Shown: positions 5,422-38,537, counted from the first letter of the stretch. The stretch: 39,079 nt of DNA from Acidimicrobiia bacterium (GCA_036559825.1 DATBSK010000044.1:1-39079), one strand, 5' to 3'. Notes: generated by a model not told the origin, from the sequence alone. Program-made: numbers and translations.

Positions 5422-6158
5422 GCGTCCTGGGGCGGCAGGTCACCGCGCTCGATCGCGCCGAGTGTGAGGCGCTGGATCGTCCGGTGATGCGTGTAGTCGA
5501 CGAGCTGGCGCGCCAGCGGCAGGATCGCCGCCGCGTGGGCCACGGCAGCACGTTGGAACGCCGCGAACTCGTCATCGGTCCAGTCGATCCCGCCGCCTGT
5601 CGTGAAGAGCTCGACGACGCGGCGTTGGGTCGCCTCGATGCCCTCGGCGTACGTGCGCGCCATCTCGACCACCGCGGACCGCGGGACGCCGAGTCGGTGC
5701 AGCTCCGCCAGGGTCTGGACCAGCTCGAGATCCTCCGCGTCGTAGGCATCGCGCCCGTACTCCTGGGGCTCGCGCAGCACGCCCGCGGCGTGCACCTCGA
5801 TCGCGAGCTCGCGGTCGATGCCCGAGCGATCGATCAGCTCGTCGAGGGTGTACGTGCGCCCCTCGGCGCCGCCGAAGAGGCCCTCGACGAAGTCGCCCCG
5901 ATCGCTCGTCAGCAGCGCCCGGATCGCAGCGAGGGAGAAGCGGCGGCCCTGCAGCTCCTTGATCCGGGCCAGCGCCTCGAGGGGGCTCGGCCCGTAGAGG
6001 TTCGCCCGCCCGGCCCGCTCGGCCGGGGGCAGGAGGCCCTCGCGCTGGTAGTAGCGGATCGTGTCGACGGTGACGTCGGCGCGACGGGCGAGGTCGTCGA
6101 TGCGCCAGCAGCCACCCCGCCCGGCCTCCGCCGGGACGCCCTCGGGGGAGTGTGACAT
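5418..6158 (-). CDS. MerR-family transcriptional regulator with a roughly 150-aa C-terminal domain
   Basis: WRIDDLARRADVTVDTIRYYQREGLLPP...NLYGPSPLEALARIKELQGRRFSLAAIRALL is a MerR winged-HTH plus the start of the coiled coil. The overall N-HTH plus helical C-domain layout resembles the Rv1828/FtsR type (inference). Confidence 0.9.
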   Translation of the reverse strand: MSHSPEGVPAEAGRGGCWRIDDLARRADVTVDTIRYYQREGLLPPAERAGRANLYGPSPLEALARIKELQGRRFSLAAIRALLTSDRGDFVEGLFGGAEGRTYTLDELIDRSGIDRELAIEVHAAGVLREPQEYGRDAYDAEDLELVQTLAELHRLGVPRSAVVEMARTYAEGIEATQRRVVELFTTGGGIDWTDDEFAAFQRAAVAHAAAILPLARQLVDYTHHRTIQRLTLGAIERGDLPPQDA

Positions 6159-6170
6159 CGGTCACCGTCC

Positions 6171-6211
6171 TTGACAGCAACTACCCTAAGAGTAGATACT
6201 CACAAAGTCAA
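6171..6211. promoter_or_regulatory. Face-to-face divergent promoters with a central MerR-type operator
   Basis: Plus strand: -35 TTGACA (6171-6176), -10 GATACT (6195-6200), 18-bp spacer. Minus strand: -35 TTGACT (6211-6206), 17-bp spacer, -10 TAGGGT (6188-6183). The imperfect palindrome CTACCCTAAGAGTAG (6181-6195, 12 of 15 positions self-complementary) sits between the hexamers. This is the only AT-rich patch in the window. Confidence 0.5.
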
Positions 6212-6274
6212 TGCACCGGAACTTGTGCACGAATGCACGAGTCTGGAGGCTCGAGAGCTCGAGAGGAGGAGCCC

Positions 6275-6403
6275 ATGGGAAGCACCGAGCGGGAGCGGGC
6301 TCTGGCGTGGATCGCCCGGCGGCTCGAATGGGAGCGCACGCTGGCCGGTCTGCGCGATGACGAGGCCGCGGACGAGCCCCACGAGGTCAGCCGCGCCGCC
6401 TGA
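6275..6403 (+). CDS. Small hypothetical protein (42 aa) divergent from merR
   Basis: ATG preceded by GAGAGGAGGAG with 5-nt spacing. MGSTERERALAWIARRLEWERTLAGLRDDEAADEPHEVSRAA. It is followed by a strong hairpin. No recognisable domain. Confidence 0.45.
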   Translation: MGSTERERALAWIARRLEWERTLAGLRDDEAADEPHEVSRAA

Positions 6404-6430
6404 GAGCACGCCCCATTCTCACCCCGATCT

Positions 6431-6468
6431 GACGAGACCCGGTCCACCCCCCTGGCCCGGGTCTCGTC
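6431..6468. terminator. Bidirectional stem-loop between convergent genes
   Basis: Perfect 12-bp stem GACGAGACCCGG (6431-6442) / CCGGGTCTCGTC (6457-6468) with a 14-nt C-rich loop. It lies between the stops at 6403 (+) and 6478 (-). There is no clear U-tract. Confidence 0.55.
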
Positions 6469-6477
6469 GCGCGCGCG

Positions 6478-6924
6478 TCAGGCGAGCACCCACCGGGGGA
6501 GCGTGACGTCCTCGACCTGCTGGAACACGACCCGGACCGGCGCCCCGATGACGATCGTCGCCGGATCGACCTCGTTGATCGGACCGTCCGGTCGGGCAAG
6601 CAGGTTCCCCACCATCCGCAGCGTCGGATCCTCGTCGAGCGCCACGACGATCACGTTGTAGGGCGCGAGCTCGGCGTACGCCGGGAGCAGCGGCGGGTGC
6701 GGGACGACGAACGACCAGATCGTGGCCCGGCCCGATACCGGCACCCACTCGACCGCCGTGGAGCGGCAGCGCGCGCACATCGGACGAGGCGGGAACCGCG
6801 CCGTCTGACACGCGCCGCAGCGCTGGACGAGCAGCTCGTGGCGCGCGCACCCGGCCCAGAACTCCTCCGCGTCCTCGCTCTCGACGTCGGGGAGCAGGAA
6901 GCCCGTCGCCATCTCCGTCACCAT
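6478..6924 (-). CDS. DUF35 Zn-ribbon/OB-fold protein (partner of SCP-x-type thiolases)
   Basis: CGACQTARFPPRPMCARC (CxxC...CxxC rubredoxin-like ribbon) followed by an OB-fold segment ATIWSFVV...YNVIVVALDE. Confidence 0.9.
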   Translation of the reverse strand: MVTEMATGFLLPDVESEDAEEFWAGCARHELLVQRCGACQTARFPPRPMCARCRSTAVEWVPVSGRATIWSFVVPHPPLLPAYAELAPYNVIVVALDEDPTLRMVGNLLARPDGPINEVDPATIVIGAPVRVVFQQVEDVTLPRWVLA

Positions 6925-6992
6925 GGCTCGCTCACTGCGCCTCGGGGTACCCGAGCCGCGGCCGTTCGCTCACGTGGCGTCATCTGCGTCAC
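6918..6992 (-). repeat. Intergenic structured element (family copy E) forming a 24-codon bridging mini-ORF
   Basis: Sense sequence: GTGACGCAGATGACGCCACGTGAGCGAACGGCCGCGGCTCGGGTACCCCGAGGCGCAGTGAGCGAGCCATGGTGA. The GTG (6992-6990) overlaps the thiolase TGA (6991-6989). The TGA (6920-6918) overlaps the GTG directly after the DUF35 ATG. Hairpin CTCGGG-TAC-CCCGAG lies at 6941-6955. Confidence 0.6.
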
Positions 6993-8164
6993 CGCCTCAG
7001 TAAGAGAGCGCTCGTCGGCACACCCTCGCCGCTCGTGACGAGGCAGCAGTCGGCGCTCTCGACCTGACAGGTCGAGGTCCCACGCATCTGGCGGACACCT
7101 TCGAGCACCAGGTTGAAGCCGTGCACGTAGGCCTCGGACATCCCGCCGCCGCTCGTGTTCGTCGGCAGCCGGCCCTCGGGCCACTCGAGCGCACCGTCCT
7201 CGGTGAACGCCCCGCCGTCACCGCGGTCGCAGAACCCGTAGCCCTCGAGCGACAGCGGCACGAGCGGGCTGAACGCGTCGTAGATCTGAGCGACCTGCAC
7301 GTCCGCGGGTGCGAACTCCGAACCGTGCCAGAGGCGCCTCGCGGCCGCCCACGACGGTCCGGCGAGCGGATCCTCGTTGAAGTAGTTGATCATCGTCTGG
7401 TGCTGCGGAGGGATGCCTTGCGCGCCCGTGTGCACGTAGACGGGTGGGTGGGGCAGATCCGGCGCGCGCTCGGCAGGGACGAGGACGATCGCGAGCGCGC
7501 CGTCCGTCTCGAGACAGTTGTCGAAGAGACACAGCGGCTCGGAGATCCAGCGCGCCTCCAGGTAGTGCTCGCGCGTCAGCGGCTTCTCGTACATCGTGGC
7601 CGCCGGATTCTGGTTGGCATGCTTGCGAAACGCGAGTGCGACGTTCGCGAGGTGGTCGCGGGTCGCGCCGAACTCGTGGATGTACCGGCGGGTCAGCATC
7701 GCGACCTCGTCGACGGGTCGCAGCAGTCCCCAGGGCCGGCTCCACTGCCAGTGGTCGCTCAGCCGCTGCGGGACCTGCGCCCAGGGCCGGCTCGACTTCG
7801 CGGCACGCTTTCGCGCTCGCCACGCCACGGCGACGGTGCACTGCCCGGTCGCGACTCCCATCGCGGCTTGGAGCACGACGCCGCACCCCGCGCCGCCCCC
7901 GTAGCCGACCTGTGAGAAGAACGTGATGTCGCCGAGGCCGACGTTGCGCGCCACGTCGACCTCGCGGTTCGGCTCCATCGTGAACGACGCCAGCCCGTCG
8001 ACCTCCGCAGGCGCGATGCCCGCGTCGTCGAGCGCGGCGGAGATCGCCTGGCATGCGAGCGAGAGCTCGGTGTCGGGCAGCCCCTTGCCGAACGCGGTCT
8101 GGCCGATGCCGACGATCGCGACGCGGTCGCGCAGCACCGAGTCCGTGCGCGGCATCGTCACCAC
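6989..8164 (-). CDS. Thiolase-like lipid-transfer protein (SCP-x/Ltp type, non-acetoacetyl-CoA thiolase)
   Basis: VAIVGIGQTAFGK...ELSLACQAISAALDDAGIAPAEVDG and C-terminal NTSGGGMSEAYVHGFN are typical of Ltp-type thiolases paired with DUF35. The start is ambiguous: GTG 8164, GTG 8161 or ATG 8155. Confidence 0.9.
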   Translation of the reverse strand: MVTMPRTDSVLRDRVAIVGIGQTAFGKGLPDTELSLACQAISAALDDAGIAPAEVDGLASFTMEPNREVDVARNVGLGDITFFSQVGYGGGAGCGVVLQAAMGVATGQCTVAVAWRARKRAAKSSRPWAQVPQRLSDHWQWSRPWGLLRPVDEVAMLTRRYIHEFGATRDHLANVALAFRKHANQNPAATMYEKPLTREHYLEARWISEPLCLFDNCLETDGALAIVLVPAERAPDLPHPPVYVHTGAQGIPPQHQTMINYFNEDPLAGPSWAAARRLWHGSEFAPADVQVAQIYDAFSPLVPLSLEGYGFCDRGDGGAFTEDGALEWPEGRLPTNTSGGGMSEAYVHGFNLVLEGVRQMRGTSTCQVESADCCLVTSGEGVPTSALLLRR

Positions 8165-8311
8165 CCCGCCTTCATGGCGTCGCTCGCTGCGGCCCGGGAT
8201 ACCCGGTCCGCAGCCGCTTGCTCCGCACCCACCCTCACCAACCCGCCTTCATGGCGTCGCTCGCTGCGGCCCGGGATACCCGGTCCGCGGCCGCTTGCTC
8301 CGCACCCACCC
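8158..8311 (-). repeat. 2 x 77-bp tandem repeat (family copies B1 8235-8311 and B2 8158-8234), MIRU-like
   Basis: Sense unit: GGGTGGGTGCGGAGCAAGCGGC[C/T]GCGGACCGGGTATCCCGGGCCGCAGCGAGCGACGCCATGAAGGCGGG[T/G]TGGTGA. The two units are 75/77 identical. Each carries the hairpin GCGGACCGGG-TAT-CCCGGGCCGC (10-bp stem, 1 mismatch) and a 26-codon ORF. Confidence 0.9.
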
Positions 8312-9154
8312 TCACCACCCCTTGAACTCCGTCGGGCGGCGCTCGAGGAAGCTCGCGACACCCTCCTTGGAGTCCTCGGTGGCCGCGACCAGCTCCACCA
8401 GCAGGGACTCCTCCTCGAACAGCGTCGCCCGGTCCACGTCGAGCGATCGGTTGAGCAGCCGCTTCGCGAAGCCGATCGTCTTCGTCGGGCCCTGGGCCAG
8501 GCGGCCGGCCCACTCGCTCGCGGTCGCGCGCAGCTCCGCGGCCGGCACGACCTTGTTCACGAGTCCGATCCGCTCCGCATCGGCTGCGGCGAGGTCGTCG
8601 CCGAAGAAGACGAGCTCCTTCGCCCGCTGCAGACCGACGAGGCGGGGGAGCAGGTACGTCGGCCCGCCGTCCGGGATGAGCCCACGTCGGACGAAGACCT
8701 GGATGATGCGCGCATGGTCGGCGGCCACGACGAGGTCGGACGCGAGCACCATCGCCGCACCGCCACCCGCCGCGGTGCCGTTCAGCGCGCACAGGATCGG
8801 CTTCTCGCAGTCGAGCATCGCCCCGATCAGGCGCTGGATGCCGGTCCGGATCATCCGTGCCGCCTCACCCGAGACGCGCTCGGGCGCTCCCTCGGGCTTG
8901 GGCGGCGGGGCCGCCCGGCCCGTCCGCAGGTCCGCGCCGGTGCAGAAGTGCTTCTCGCCCGCAGCGGTGAGCACCACGGCGCGCACGTCGAACGAGGTGT
9001 TCGCGTCGCTCAGGTGCTCGATGATCCGGTTGCGCACGGTGGGCGTGATCGCGTTCCCCGCGTCGGGTCGGTTGAGCGTCAGCCAGAGCACCTGCTCGCG
9101 CAGCTCCGCGAGCAGCTCCTGGTCGACGTCGACCTCGTTCACCGTGTCGGTCAC
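8312..9154 (-). CDS. Enoyl-CoA hydratase/isomerase (crotonase) family protein
   Basis: LWLTLNRPDAGNAIT...VVLTAAGEKHFCTGADL...NGTAAGGGAAMVLASD is the crotonase fold signature. Confidence 0.92.
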   Translation of the reverse strand: MTDTVNEVDVDQELLAELREQVLWLTLNRPDAGNAITPTVRNRIIEHLSDANTSFDVRAVVLTAAGEKHFCTGADLRTGRAAPPPKPEGAPERVSGEAARMIRTGIQRLIGAMLDCEKPILCALNGTAAGGGAAMVLASDLVVAADHARIIQVFVRRGLIPDGGPTYLLPRLVGLQRAKELVFFGDDLAAADAERIGLVNKVVPAAELRATASEWAGRLAQGPTKTIGFAKRLLNRSLDVDRATLFEEESLLVELVAATEDSKEGVASFLERRPTEFKGW

Positions 9155-16157: not shown

Positions 16158-16592
16158 ATGGCCGACGAAGCCCACGAGCGCATCGCGGTGGCCGCGCCGC
16201 CGAGCCGGCTCTGGGAGATCGCGACCGACTACGAGCGTTATCCCTCGTGGGCCCGGGACGTCAAGCACGTCGAGGTGCTCGATCGGGACAGCCAGGGACG
16301 TGGCAAGCGGGTCGAGTACCGCGTCGCCGGATTGGGAAAGAGCATCCGCTACGTGCTCGAGTACGAGTACGAGGACGCACCGACGGCGTTCTCGTGGCAC
16401 TTCGTGGAAGGTGACTGGTTGCGCAAGCTGGACGGGCGGTACGGGTTCGAGCCCGAGGCTGACGGGACCCGCGTGACCTACGACCTCGTGGTCGATGTCT
16501 CCGCCCCGCTCCCGGGGCTGATCAAGCGCCGCGCCGCGAGCATGATCATGGGCACCGCCCTCAAGGAGCTGAAGAAGGAGGCGGAGCGATGA
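16158..16592 (+). CDS. SRPBCC (START/polyketide cyclase-dehydrase-like) family protein
   Basis: IAVAAPPSRLWEIATDYERYPSWARDVKHVEVL...WLRKLDGRYGFEP is a typical Polyketide_cyc2-type sequence, similar in layout to mycobacterial TB16.3. Confidence 0.85.
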   Translation: MADEAHERIAVAAPPSRLWEIATDYERYPSWARDVKHVEVLDRDSQGRGKRVEYRVAGLGKSIRYVLEYEYEDAPTAFSWHFVEGDWLRKLDGRYGFEPEADGTRVTYDLVVDVSAPLPGLIKRRAASMIMGTALKELKKEAER

Positions 16593-16726
16593 GCGAGCGT
16601 CTCGCGAGCCGGGTAACCCGGCTCGTAGCGAGCGGGGCAGGAGCCGTCGCTTGCGACGGCGACCCGGAAGGACAGCGGCAGGCGCGAAGCGCCCTGCGGC
16701 GAAGCCGCAAGGAGCGGGAAGGATGA
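16589..16726 (+). repeat. Intergenic structured element (family copy A, 134-bp insert) forming a 45-codon bridging ORF
   Basis: ATG 16589 overlaps the SRPBCC TGA (ATGA). TGA 16724-16726 overlaps the next gene's ATG 16723 (ATGA). Peptide: MSERLASRVTRLVASGAGAVACDGDPEGQRQARSALRRSRKEREG. Four stem-loops at 16605-16625, 16643-16660, 16681-16693 and 16696-16708. Confidence 0.6.
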
Positions 16727-33178: not shown

Positions 33179-33628
33179 GTGGGGTACTCGGCCACCCAGG
33201 CGGCGCGGCTCGCCGGGTGCACCCCCGCCCAGCTCGAGAGCTGGGACCGAGCGGGGCTCGTCCGCACCCGGCCCGGTGACGACGGCCCGTACGCGTTCCG
33301 CGACCTCGTCGCCCTGCGCATGGTCCGCTCGCTGCTCGACGCCGGGCTCTCGCTCGGGCGGATCCGACGCGCCGTCACCGAGCTGGCCCAGGGTGGTGAG
33401 GAGCTCGCAGAGCTCCGCCTCGTGACCGACGGCGACCACGTGTGGGCCTGCCGCGACGACGGGCAGATCCTGGACGCGCTCGGCCGCGGTCAGCTCGCGC
33501 TGTTCGTCGCCGTGGACCGCCTGGCAGCCGAGGTGGAGGCCGAGGTGCGCGAGTTCTCCCGCGATCGACAGACGTTCCTCGACGACCTCCGATCCGACGG
33601 CCGCGACGACCACCCGGCCAGCTCCTAG
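33179..33628 (+). CDS. MerR-like helix-turn-helix protein
   Basis: YSATQAARLAGCTPAQLESWDRAGLV...YAFRDLVALRMVRSLLDAGLSLGRIRRAV. GTG start. Confidence 0.75.
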   Translation: MGYSATQAARLAGCTPAQLESWDRAGLVRTRPGDDGPYAFRDLVALRMVRSLLDAGLSLGRIRRAVTELAQGGEELAELRLVTDGDHVWACRDDGQILDALGRGQLALFVAVDRLAAEVEAEVREFSRDRQTFLDDLRSDGRDDHPASS

Positions 33629-38473: not shown

Positions 38474-38524
38474 GGGAGCGAGCGTGGAGCGGGCCCGGGC
38501 ATCCCGGGCCCGGAGCGAGCGAGC
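38474..38524 (+). repeat. Intergenic structured element (family copy C) upstream of, or fused in frame to, the HNH gene
   Basis: GGGAGCGAGCGTGGAGC-GGGCCCGGG-CAT-CCCGGGCCC-GGAGCGAGCGAGC. Perfect 9-bp stem at 38491-38511, flanked by direct GAGCGAGCG boxes. Confidence 0.5.
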
Positions 38525-38537
38525 AAGGGGAGATGGC

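Follow-up and report, generated by a model that had tools for sequence, protein, structure and literature searches.

The window examined here is a 39,079-nucleotide stretch of DNA from an Acidimicrobiia bacterium (GCA_036559825.1 DATBSK010000044.1:1-39079), in which a thiolase-like gene and a DUF35 gene, both assigned to lipid degradation, are separated by a 71-bp element. Our analysis suggests that this spacer is probably an intercistronic repeat that resembles the interspersed repetitive units of mycobacteria (MIRUs), and that it is tolerated because a mini open reading frame (mini-ORF), which would be translated, preserves translational coupling between the two genes. The repeat family to which the spacer belongs is a small non-autonomous dispersed repeat of one order of uncultured Acidimicrobiia. 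An initial annotation, made from the sequence of the window alone, had recognized the mini-ORF and its duplicated flanks; it missed the dispersed family, which is order-wide, has a covarying hairpin and reaches about 85-130 copies per genome.

Organization of the thiolase/DUF35 junction

The thiolase-like gene, the mini-ORF and the DUF35 gene all lie on the minus strand. The thiolase-like gene (6989..8164; Pfam Thiolase_N and Thiolase_C_1) is the upstream partner of the junction and ends in ...CTG AGG CGG TGA. On direct reading, and as described in the initial annotation, its stop codon (TGA, 6989..6991) is overlapped by the GTG (6992-6990) of the mini-ORF in a GTGA arrangement, and the stop of the mini-ORF overlaps the second codon of the DUF35 gene. 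The mini-ORF (6918..6992) has 24 codons from this GTG, or 21 codons from an in-frame ATG (6983-6981) located 5 nt past the thiolase TGA; its translation is VTQMTPRERTAAARVPRGAVSEPW, and it is included in a longer open frame in the ORF listing (6918..7184). Its stop (TGA, 6920-6918) is found within CCATGGTGA, inside an ATGGTGA in which ATG 6924-6922 is the longest start of the DUF35 gene and GTG 6921-6919 is codon 2. The downstream partner (6478..6924) is a DUF35 or ChsH2-type gene encoding a zinc ribbon and an OB fold (Pfam zf-ChsH2 and OB_ChsH2_C, the former DUF35), for which there are three candidate starts: ATG 6924; GTG 6921, which overlaps the mini-ORF stop; and ATG 6912-6910, which lies 5 nt past the mini-ORF TGA. 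The 13-nt direct repeat with one mismatch that had been noticed at the two ends is also present: GGTGACGCAGATG (6981..6993), which contains the thiolase stop and the ATG 5 nt beyond it, and GGTGACGGAGATG (6910..6922), which contains the mini-ORF stop, GTG 6921-6919 and ATG 6912-6910, are identical at 12 of 13 positions and are 71 nt apart.

Two independent assemblies, JGI 3300036860 and SRR11742948, contain the same element sequence ahead of a DUF35 gene that is also identical, so it is not an assembly artefact. Pfam domains identify the gene upstream of the thiolase as a crotonase (ECH_1), with an ADP-forming acyl-CoA synthetase still further upstream; an exact-protein look-up of the thiolase returned no record. 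A scan of positions 6300-8500 found no promoter-like and no terminator-like site, and the hairpin of the element is followed by AGTGAGCGAGCC rather than by a U tract, so that it does not qualify as an intrinsic terminator. We count the absence of such sites in this interval in favour of a predicted co-transcription of the operon.

A dispersed repeat family with a covarying hairpin

The host genome (G000) is a metagenome-assembled genome (MAG) of 2.86 Mb with 71.5% GC and a completeness of about 80%. In this genome, BLAST with only the 75-nt sequence as query returns 16 further paralogues at E < 1e-4. A profile made from 11 copies brings the number to 84 at E < 1e-3 and to 127 at E < 1. The family core in the thiolase/DUF35 spacer is 48 nt long (6924..6971, minus strand; nhmmer E = 6e-12) and consists of GAGCGAACGGCC, a hairpin and AGTGAGCGAGCCA. 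The hairpin (6937..6959, minus strand) comprises GCGGCTCGGG, the loop TAC and CCCGAGGCGC, with nine of the ten pairs formed and one G.G mismatch. Across the family the core consensus is GAGCGA(A/G)CG, 3 nt, a 10-bp GC stem, the loop TA(C/T), the complementary arm, AG(C/T)GAGCGA and a tail, for example CGCCATGG-(A/T)GATG or CCATGGTGA. Family units measure 56-90 bp and also form tandem arrays, with periods of 56, 57, 60, 65, 77 and 88-90 bp. A longer subfamily has units of about 89 nt with two extra small hairpins and ends in AGGAGCGGGAAAGATGA, a Shine-Dalgarno-like tract followed by ATGA.

The hairpin is conserved by compensatory change. In an ungapped alignment of 47 distinct cores, 97.2% of the cells are paired, and five of the ten pairs show changes in both partners (54 cells). 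No shuffle out of 500 equals the family in this respect, and slid controls are 39-50% paired. The case for the hairpin comes from covariation in the family and not from the copy at 6937..6959 by itself. A scan of positions 6000-9000 against Rfam (E <= 10) gave nothing on the element; the only matches, 6C (23.9/47 bits) and sR53 (16.5/49 bits), are sub-threshold chance hits.

Two tandem 77-bp units between the crotonase and thiolase genes (8158..8321, minus strand) belong to the same family. The covariance-model scan that the initial annotation had proposed scores them at 67.8 and 66.5 bits and gives 66.4 bits for the thiolase/DUF35 copy, which is itself part of the seed. The array is flanked at both ends by GGGGTGGTGA. 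In a global alignment the element scores 26 against a 77-bp unit, versus 6.7 +/- 2.3 for shuffled sequence (z = 8.6), and none of 1979 random 75-mers of the window reaches this score, so that the similarity, first noted by eye, stands above the GC-rich background. Element and 77-bp unit share one codon phase across the hairpin (ARVPR in the element, DRVSR in the 77-bp unit), and the proposal that the crotonase, thiolase and DUF35 genes are all linked through such elements is supported. The covariance model detects further copies in the window at 16591-16639 (plus strand, 53.3 bits), 38476-38526 (plus strand, 29.2 bits) and 33321-33355 (minus strand, 23.9 bits). Of these, the copy at 16591-16639 is a member of the longer subfamily with several hairpins, which starts with ATGAGCGAGCG and ends in ...GATGA.

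Within the order, 151 genomes were searched with a covariance model of the core (R1), and 53 of them carry the repeat. Its distribution is patchy even within the taxonomic family of the host, where some genera have at least 40 copies and others none. None of about 300 phylum-wide genomes (199 genera, including about 20 genomes of the same class and one of the same order) gave a match. A pattern scan of named genomes returned only uncultured MAGs labelled Acidimicrobiia, Actinomycetes or Actinomycetota, apart from a few matches labelled Bifidobacteriaceae, evidently by mistake. We found no description of this family in the searchable literature on Acidimicrobiia repeats and MIRU-like elements. 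Many copies in G000 lie at extreme contig ends (for example C22:2-39, C101:25-73, C199:2-36, C55:5-44 and C236:108-147), and two independent assemblies break within this very element (at the starts of L184 and L185); the family seems to be a main cause of the fragmentation of these MAGs.

Orientation bias and relay geometry

Copies located between co-directional genes are strongly biased in orientation. In the host genome 34 are sense and 6 antisense (p = 8e-6), in the set of element-bearing spacers used for comparison 30 of 33 are sense, and in other MAGs (115 stretches) 52 are sense and 17 antisense. Not every longer spacer is occupied: genome-wide, the core profile places a copy in 13 of 90 co-directional spacers of 60-100 nt and in 8 of 51 of 100-150 nt. 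The spacers with an element are also enriched in ORFs that bridge the flanking genes. We define a relay chain as a path from the upstream stop, through at least one ORF, to a start in the downstream frame, with each stop-to-start step between -4 and +9 nt. At the thiolase/DUF35 junction the path has its start at -21, its stop at +51 and the downstream gene start at +50 relative to the start of the core. Such chains occur at 32 of 48 loci, compared with 10.7 +/- 2.5 when the spacer is shuffled, and if every step has to be an overlap, with the start 1-4 nt ahead of the end of the stop, 25 of the 48 have a chain, compared with 6.9 +/- 1.9. Among co-directional spacers of 40-200 nt, a chain is present in 20 of 26 spacers with an element and in 29 of 184 without one (Fisher p = 6e-10), the corresponding figures for overlap-only chains being 14 of 26 and 14 of 184. 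Other MAGs show the same enrichment, with chains at 38 of 72 sites versus 13 +/- 3.1 after shuffling.

The mini-ORFs read through the hairpin in two phases, phase 1 at 18 loci and phase 0 at 11, and they span 13 to 51 codons. Since both the phase and the length vary, the peptide is not the conserved feature; it is the geometry, rather than the peptide sequence, that is conserved.

History of the thiolase/DUF35 junction

Comparison of 29 orthologous operons, in which the thiolase C-terminus is 73-88% identical, indicates that the spacer is an inserted copy, as the initial annotation had suggested. Most of the junctions lack the element and consist of TGA or TAG, 2-26 nt, and then ATG, GTG or TTG. 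The commonest empty form is TGA, 5-10 nt and ATG-GAG-ACC-GGG, which encodes METGF, a typical DUF35 N-terminus. Empty sites are also found within the genus, with stop-start spacers of 16 nt in G001, 26 nt in G004 and 27 nt in G003. The site is occupied only in G000, in its congener G002 (56.9 bits) and in G052, a distant genome (51.4 bits). This pattern, with the site empty in G001, G003, G004 and most relatives and occupied in two others, favours an insertion. The G002 copy differs from that of G000 in its stem (GCGGCGCACG/CGTGCGCCGC) and 5' flank, and its mini-ORF (MSERPRRTHRAPQGASP, then a stop) is read in the other phase and ends in ATGA on the DUF35 start. The two copies are either independent insertions, or one has been converted from another copy. 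In G003 (L035) the 27-nt spacer is TGCGGACGATCCCAGCGAGCAAGAC, followed by a GTG start; it contains TCCCAGCGAGCAAG, which could be a remnant of the 3' half of an element (the loop end and then GCAGCGAGCGA) after loss of the hairpin.

The initial annotation had also proposed an ancestral 4-nt GTGA overlap between the thiolase and DUF35 genes, which was expected to reappear without a spacer in relatives that lack the element. Elementless junctions were indeed found, but they have short spacers instead of the overlap. Nor do the relatives share an unrelated spacer of equal length, since most have short ones and G002 and G052 carry a member of the family. The 4-nt overlap does hold at the neighbouring crotonase/thiolase junction, where relatives have GGCTGGTGA or TGGTAGTG; by comparison with these relatives the ancestral overlap there was presumably GGCTGGTGA. 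At the thiolase/DUF35 junction, the N-termini of the DUF35 orthologues align as M(E/A)TGF beginning at ATG 6912-6910, which is therefore the probable ancestral start, and the ancestral junction was most likely TGA-CGGAG-ATG-GCG-ACG-GGC (MATGF).

This motif is now doubled, with TGA-CGCAG-ATG after the thiolase and TGA-CGGAG-ATG before DUF35, and the 71-nt period puts the second TGA in frame with the first ATG. The repeat search recovers the 13-nt pair, with its one mismatch, at offsets -22 and -1; a free search finds repeats of at least 13 nt in about 5% of mismatched control pairs. When the register is fixed by the shared GTGA, seven of eight further positions match, which by our estimate would happen by chance with a probability of about 1e-3. 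Some of the 3' repeat (CCATGGTGA) is element sequence, as the paralogue C150 shares ...GCAGTGAGCGAGCCATGGTGA and the peptide tail RVPRAAVSEPW before its stop. Thus, the earlier suggestion that insertion regenerated the junction on both sides is retained in part: the duplicate does rebuild a stop followed by a start twice, but some of the 3' repeat derives from the element and not from the junction.

Other repeats occur at the same places in related operons of other genera. In L040 (G016), L043 (G032), L050 (G021), L051 (G019) and L038 (G026), the two junctions contain tandem repeats of a different sort, with abundant GAGCGG/GAGCGA but no hairpin; three copies of gagcggatgcgagcaagggcggcagac are an example. 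It looks as if both junctions of the operon were hot spots at which several families of repeats settle.

Junction duplications at other loci and the search for a mobilising enzyme

Duplications of flanking gene sequence accompany the element at several other loci. At C166:11523, 14 nt of the downstream start are duplicated, so that the mini-ORF begins MDFS... and the gene MDFY.... At C99:4520-4760 (minus strand) a 29-nt duplicate comprises the last 8 codons and the stop of the upstream gene (VERVFYEA and stop, twice), and at C183:17780-18020 (plus strand) about 39 nt of the 3' end of the upstream gene, including its stop, are duplicated. At C193:13090-13300 a 19-nt gene end, GGAGCTGGTGTGACCGGGG, is present three times; one of the units retains the outer element sequence (GGGCGTCAGCAGCG joined to ACGCCATGG) and lacks the hairpin core, which suggests either a deletion between GAGCG/CAGCG microhomologies or a two-layer (nested) element. 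In addition, a copy at C189:11456-11506 (L010; ORF C189:11173-14568) is part of a 69-nt insertion that keeps the reading frame of a DnaE2-like gene for an error-prone polymerase with a PHP domain. This insertion adds 23 residues (RANDREPGIPARSERASGRRLDL) and is flanked by the 11-nt direct repeat GGCTCGACC(C/T)G.

The Y1 transposase domain (Y1_Tnp, PF01797) has no match in the host genome. It is found in 10 of the 151 genomes of the order, only one of which (G024) is among the 53 carriers, the rest belonging to genera without the element; the search was positive in six control genomes, and the near-complete carriers G001 (98%) and G013 (100%) lack the domain. The reverse transcriptase domain RVT_1 is present in 7 of the 53 carriers, as against 16 of the 98 non-carriers, and is absent from the high-copy genomes G001, G004, G019, G048 and G057. 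A reverse transcriptase was rejected as the mobiliser since it shows no association with the element. An integron attC site was likewise rejected on reading the sequence: there is no GTTRRRY core, and the genes form a conserved syntenic metabolic operon.

Comparison with known repeats and coupling devices

MIRUs (Supply et al. 1997) are described as units of 40-100 bp found in operon spacers in the orientation of the genes, with small ORFs that overlap the ends of their neighbours; their filled sites are flanked by tetranucleotide direct repeats, and they are thought to insert at start codons, with the internal ORF coupled at -4 nt and little disturbance of expression (PMC12548453, PMC4473831, PMC3184786). 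Whether they have dyad symmetry is disputed, as it is lacking according to PMC4473831 while PMC3184786 describes GC-rich inverted repeats. The Acidimicrobiia family shares all of these features of layout. Its units are short (56-90 bp) and occur both dispersed and in tandem arrays; their usual place, although not their only one, is an operon spacer, in sense orientation; and they contain a small ORF that overlaps the flanking stop and start, with GTGA at both ends of the thiolase/DUF35 copy. A short direct repeat brackets the filled sites, RTGA here and a tetranucleotide in MIRUs. In both cases empty and filled orthologous sites exist, no transposase is known, and translational coupling is proposed to be kept. 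The two differ in their hosts, which are of the class Acidimicrobiia and not Mycobacterium; in the conserved covarying 10-bp hairpin of the present family, with its TAY loop and flanking GAGCGA direct repeats; and in its flanking duplications, which can be long and variable (10-39 nt). The family is also undetected outside one order in the phylum-wide set of about 300 genomes; the comparison with MIRUs is one of published descriptions. We therefore treat it as a new variant of the MIRU kind and not as a MIRU.

The repetitive extragenic palindromic (REP) sequences and bacterial interspersed mosaic elements (BIMEs) are similar in several ways: they too are short palindromes rich in GC, the bases that flank them are conserved, they number around a hundred in a genome, and they are extragenic, clustered and transcribed within operons. 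The present family differs in that its carriers, except for G024, have no Y1 transposase, in its strong sense bias, and in its built-in mini-ORFs that relay from stop to start. The Rickettsia palindromic elements are small palindromic repeats able to insert in frame into protein-coding genes. The C189 copy, in frame within a DnaE2-like gene, resembles them; in the present family, however, in-frame copies are a minority, most being separate coupled mini-cistrons at junctions, and the two are not known to be related in sequence. Delivery uORFs (upstream ORFs) and synthetic bicistronic-design cassettes use a short leader ORF whose stop overlaps or abuts the main start, and translation of the leader opens local structure and hands the ribosome on (PMC12548453). 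The cassette described here differs from these in being naturally repeated and apparently mobile, rather than a locus-specific leader.

A model for the junction and its alternatives

The preferred reading, in which a MIRU-like repeat is tolerated because its mini-ORF preserves coupling, can be put as a sequence of steps. A copy would have inserted into the tight thiolase/DUF35 junction (TGA-CGGAG-ATG) and would now lie between 13-nt junction duplicates. A ribosome that ends thiolase synthesis at the TGA may restart either at the GTG that overlaps it or 5 nt further on at the ATG, translate the mini-ORF of 21-24 codons while melting the hairpin en route, stop at the TGA within ATGGTGA, and restart on DUF35 at ATG 6924, GTG 6921 or ATG 6912. 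With such a relay the insertion would not uncouple two proteins that work as a complex, and the retention of coupling would explain the survival of such copies at operon junctions. More tentatively, the hairpin units may be active mobile DNA that homes to stop/start junctions and start codons. A variable target duplication (10-39 nt) would then copy the stop/start signals of the host and build a self-phased delivery cistron, and the enzyme responsible would be neither Y1/RAYT (the REP-associated tyrosine transposase) nor a resident reverse transcriptase, but of an unrecognised kind. If this less probable extension held, the likeness of the family to MIRUs would have arisen independently, by convergence, and its study could show by what route MIRUs themselves move.

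Several observations weigh against the coupling model or against the strength of its support. Copies in arrays and subfamilies are not independent, and the p-values are accordingly overstated; genes were called by a crude method based on GC3, and the start sites of the downstream genes are not certain. Other MAGs also have 36 convergent and 18 divergent sites as well as copies inside ORFs, so that this is not strictly an operon-junction element, and about a third of the sense junction copies have no relay chain under our definition. Locus-specific flanking duplications are not general, the median best repeat being 9 nt in self and control pairs alike; their lengths of 10-39 nt fit no standard transposase, and no mobilising gene was found when Y1 transposase and reverse transcriptase were checked. 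Finally, folding of the spacer RNA, suggested in the initial annotation as a check, forms nine of the ten hairpin pairs, leaving the G.G mismatch in the stem, and its energy is no better than that of shuffles of the same composition (z = -1.1 to -1.5); the 77-bp units have one stem mismatch each and likewise fold no better than shuffles.

The repeat could alternatively be a cis-acting RNA hairpin selected by the host, whether to stabilise mRNA, to serve as a processing site for an RNase or to slow translation and so set the ratio of thiolase to DUF35; the mini-ORF would then be a by-product of a position between genes. The covarying stem, the bias to the transcribed sense orientation and the copies that follow convergent gene ends, where coupling is not needed, are all compatible with such a role, and REP hairpins are known to stabilise upstream mRNA (reviewed in PMC3184786). 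We nevertheless consider it unlikely. Orthologous junctions are occupied patchily even within the genus, unlike a conserved regulatory site; flanking duplications and tandem arrays indicate insertion and expansion; Rfam gave no match to the element in the 6000-9000 interval; and relay chains would not be expected to be enriched over element-free spacers if the mini-ORF were a by-product.

The remaining alternatives are much less probable than the RNA hairpin. Spread of a REP/BIME-type extragenic palindrome by a RAYT acting on single-stranded DNA hairpins would account for the short GC-rich palindrome, its conserved flanks and the mostly extragenic copies in clusters and arrays (about 85-130 per genome), but it is largely refuted by the absence of Y1_Tnp from the host genome and its presence in only 1 of 53 carriers, despite positive controls, and by the strong sense bias and relay ORFs, which are foreign to REPs. 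It is equally improbable that the mini-ORF encodes a functional micropeptide of the RVPR...SEPW type that is made together with the thiolase and DUF35 proteins. Such a product would fit the open frame with its coupled start and stop codons and the tail RVPR(G/A)AVSEPW (followed by a stop) shared with the paralogue C150; this shared peptide is, however, explained by shared repeat DNA, the hairpin is read in two phases across loci with frames of 13-51 codons, and the G002 copy at the same junction encodes an unrelated peptide in the other phase. A purely local origin, by tandem duplication or slippage of the junction, with the likeness to the 77-bp units due only to GC-rich composition, is refuted. 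Although a 13-nt direct repeat brackets the spacer and its fold energy is unexceptional, the alignment to the 77-bp unit (z = 8.6, equalled by none of the 1979 window 75-mers), the 16 other BLAST paralogues at E < 1e-4 and the family members at the same junction in G002 and G052 all speak for a dispersed repeat.

Neighbouring features

In the interval between the DUF35 gene and a MerR gene, a 42-residue ORF (6283-6411, plus strand) is convergent with the DUF35 gene and has no Pfam match; two other assemblies have it annotated as a gene (L184 588-716). A weak, sub-threshold match to 6C RNA is located nearby, at 6433-6483.

Significance

If the MIRU-like reading is correct, a repeat that persists because it re-creates translational coupling would have spread widely through the operons of uncultured soil and freshwater Acidimicrobiia, as nature's counterpart to the bicistronic-design cassettes of engineering. 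The family would also be a second, apparently independent case of the MIRU strategy, the function and mobility of MIRUs themselves never having been settled. In practical terms, such repeats break MAG assemblies, with many copies at contig ends, and mislead the annotation of start codons. The family is a tractable system for asking how such elements move and whether relay mini-ORFs function: a genome holds about 85-130 copies, the hairpin covaries, and a single genus includes both filled and empty sites.

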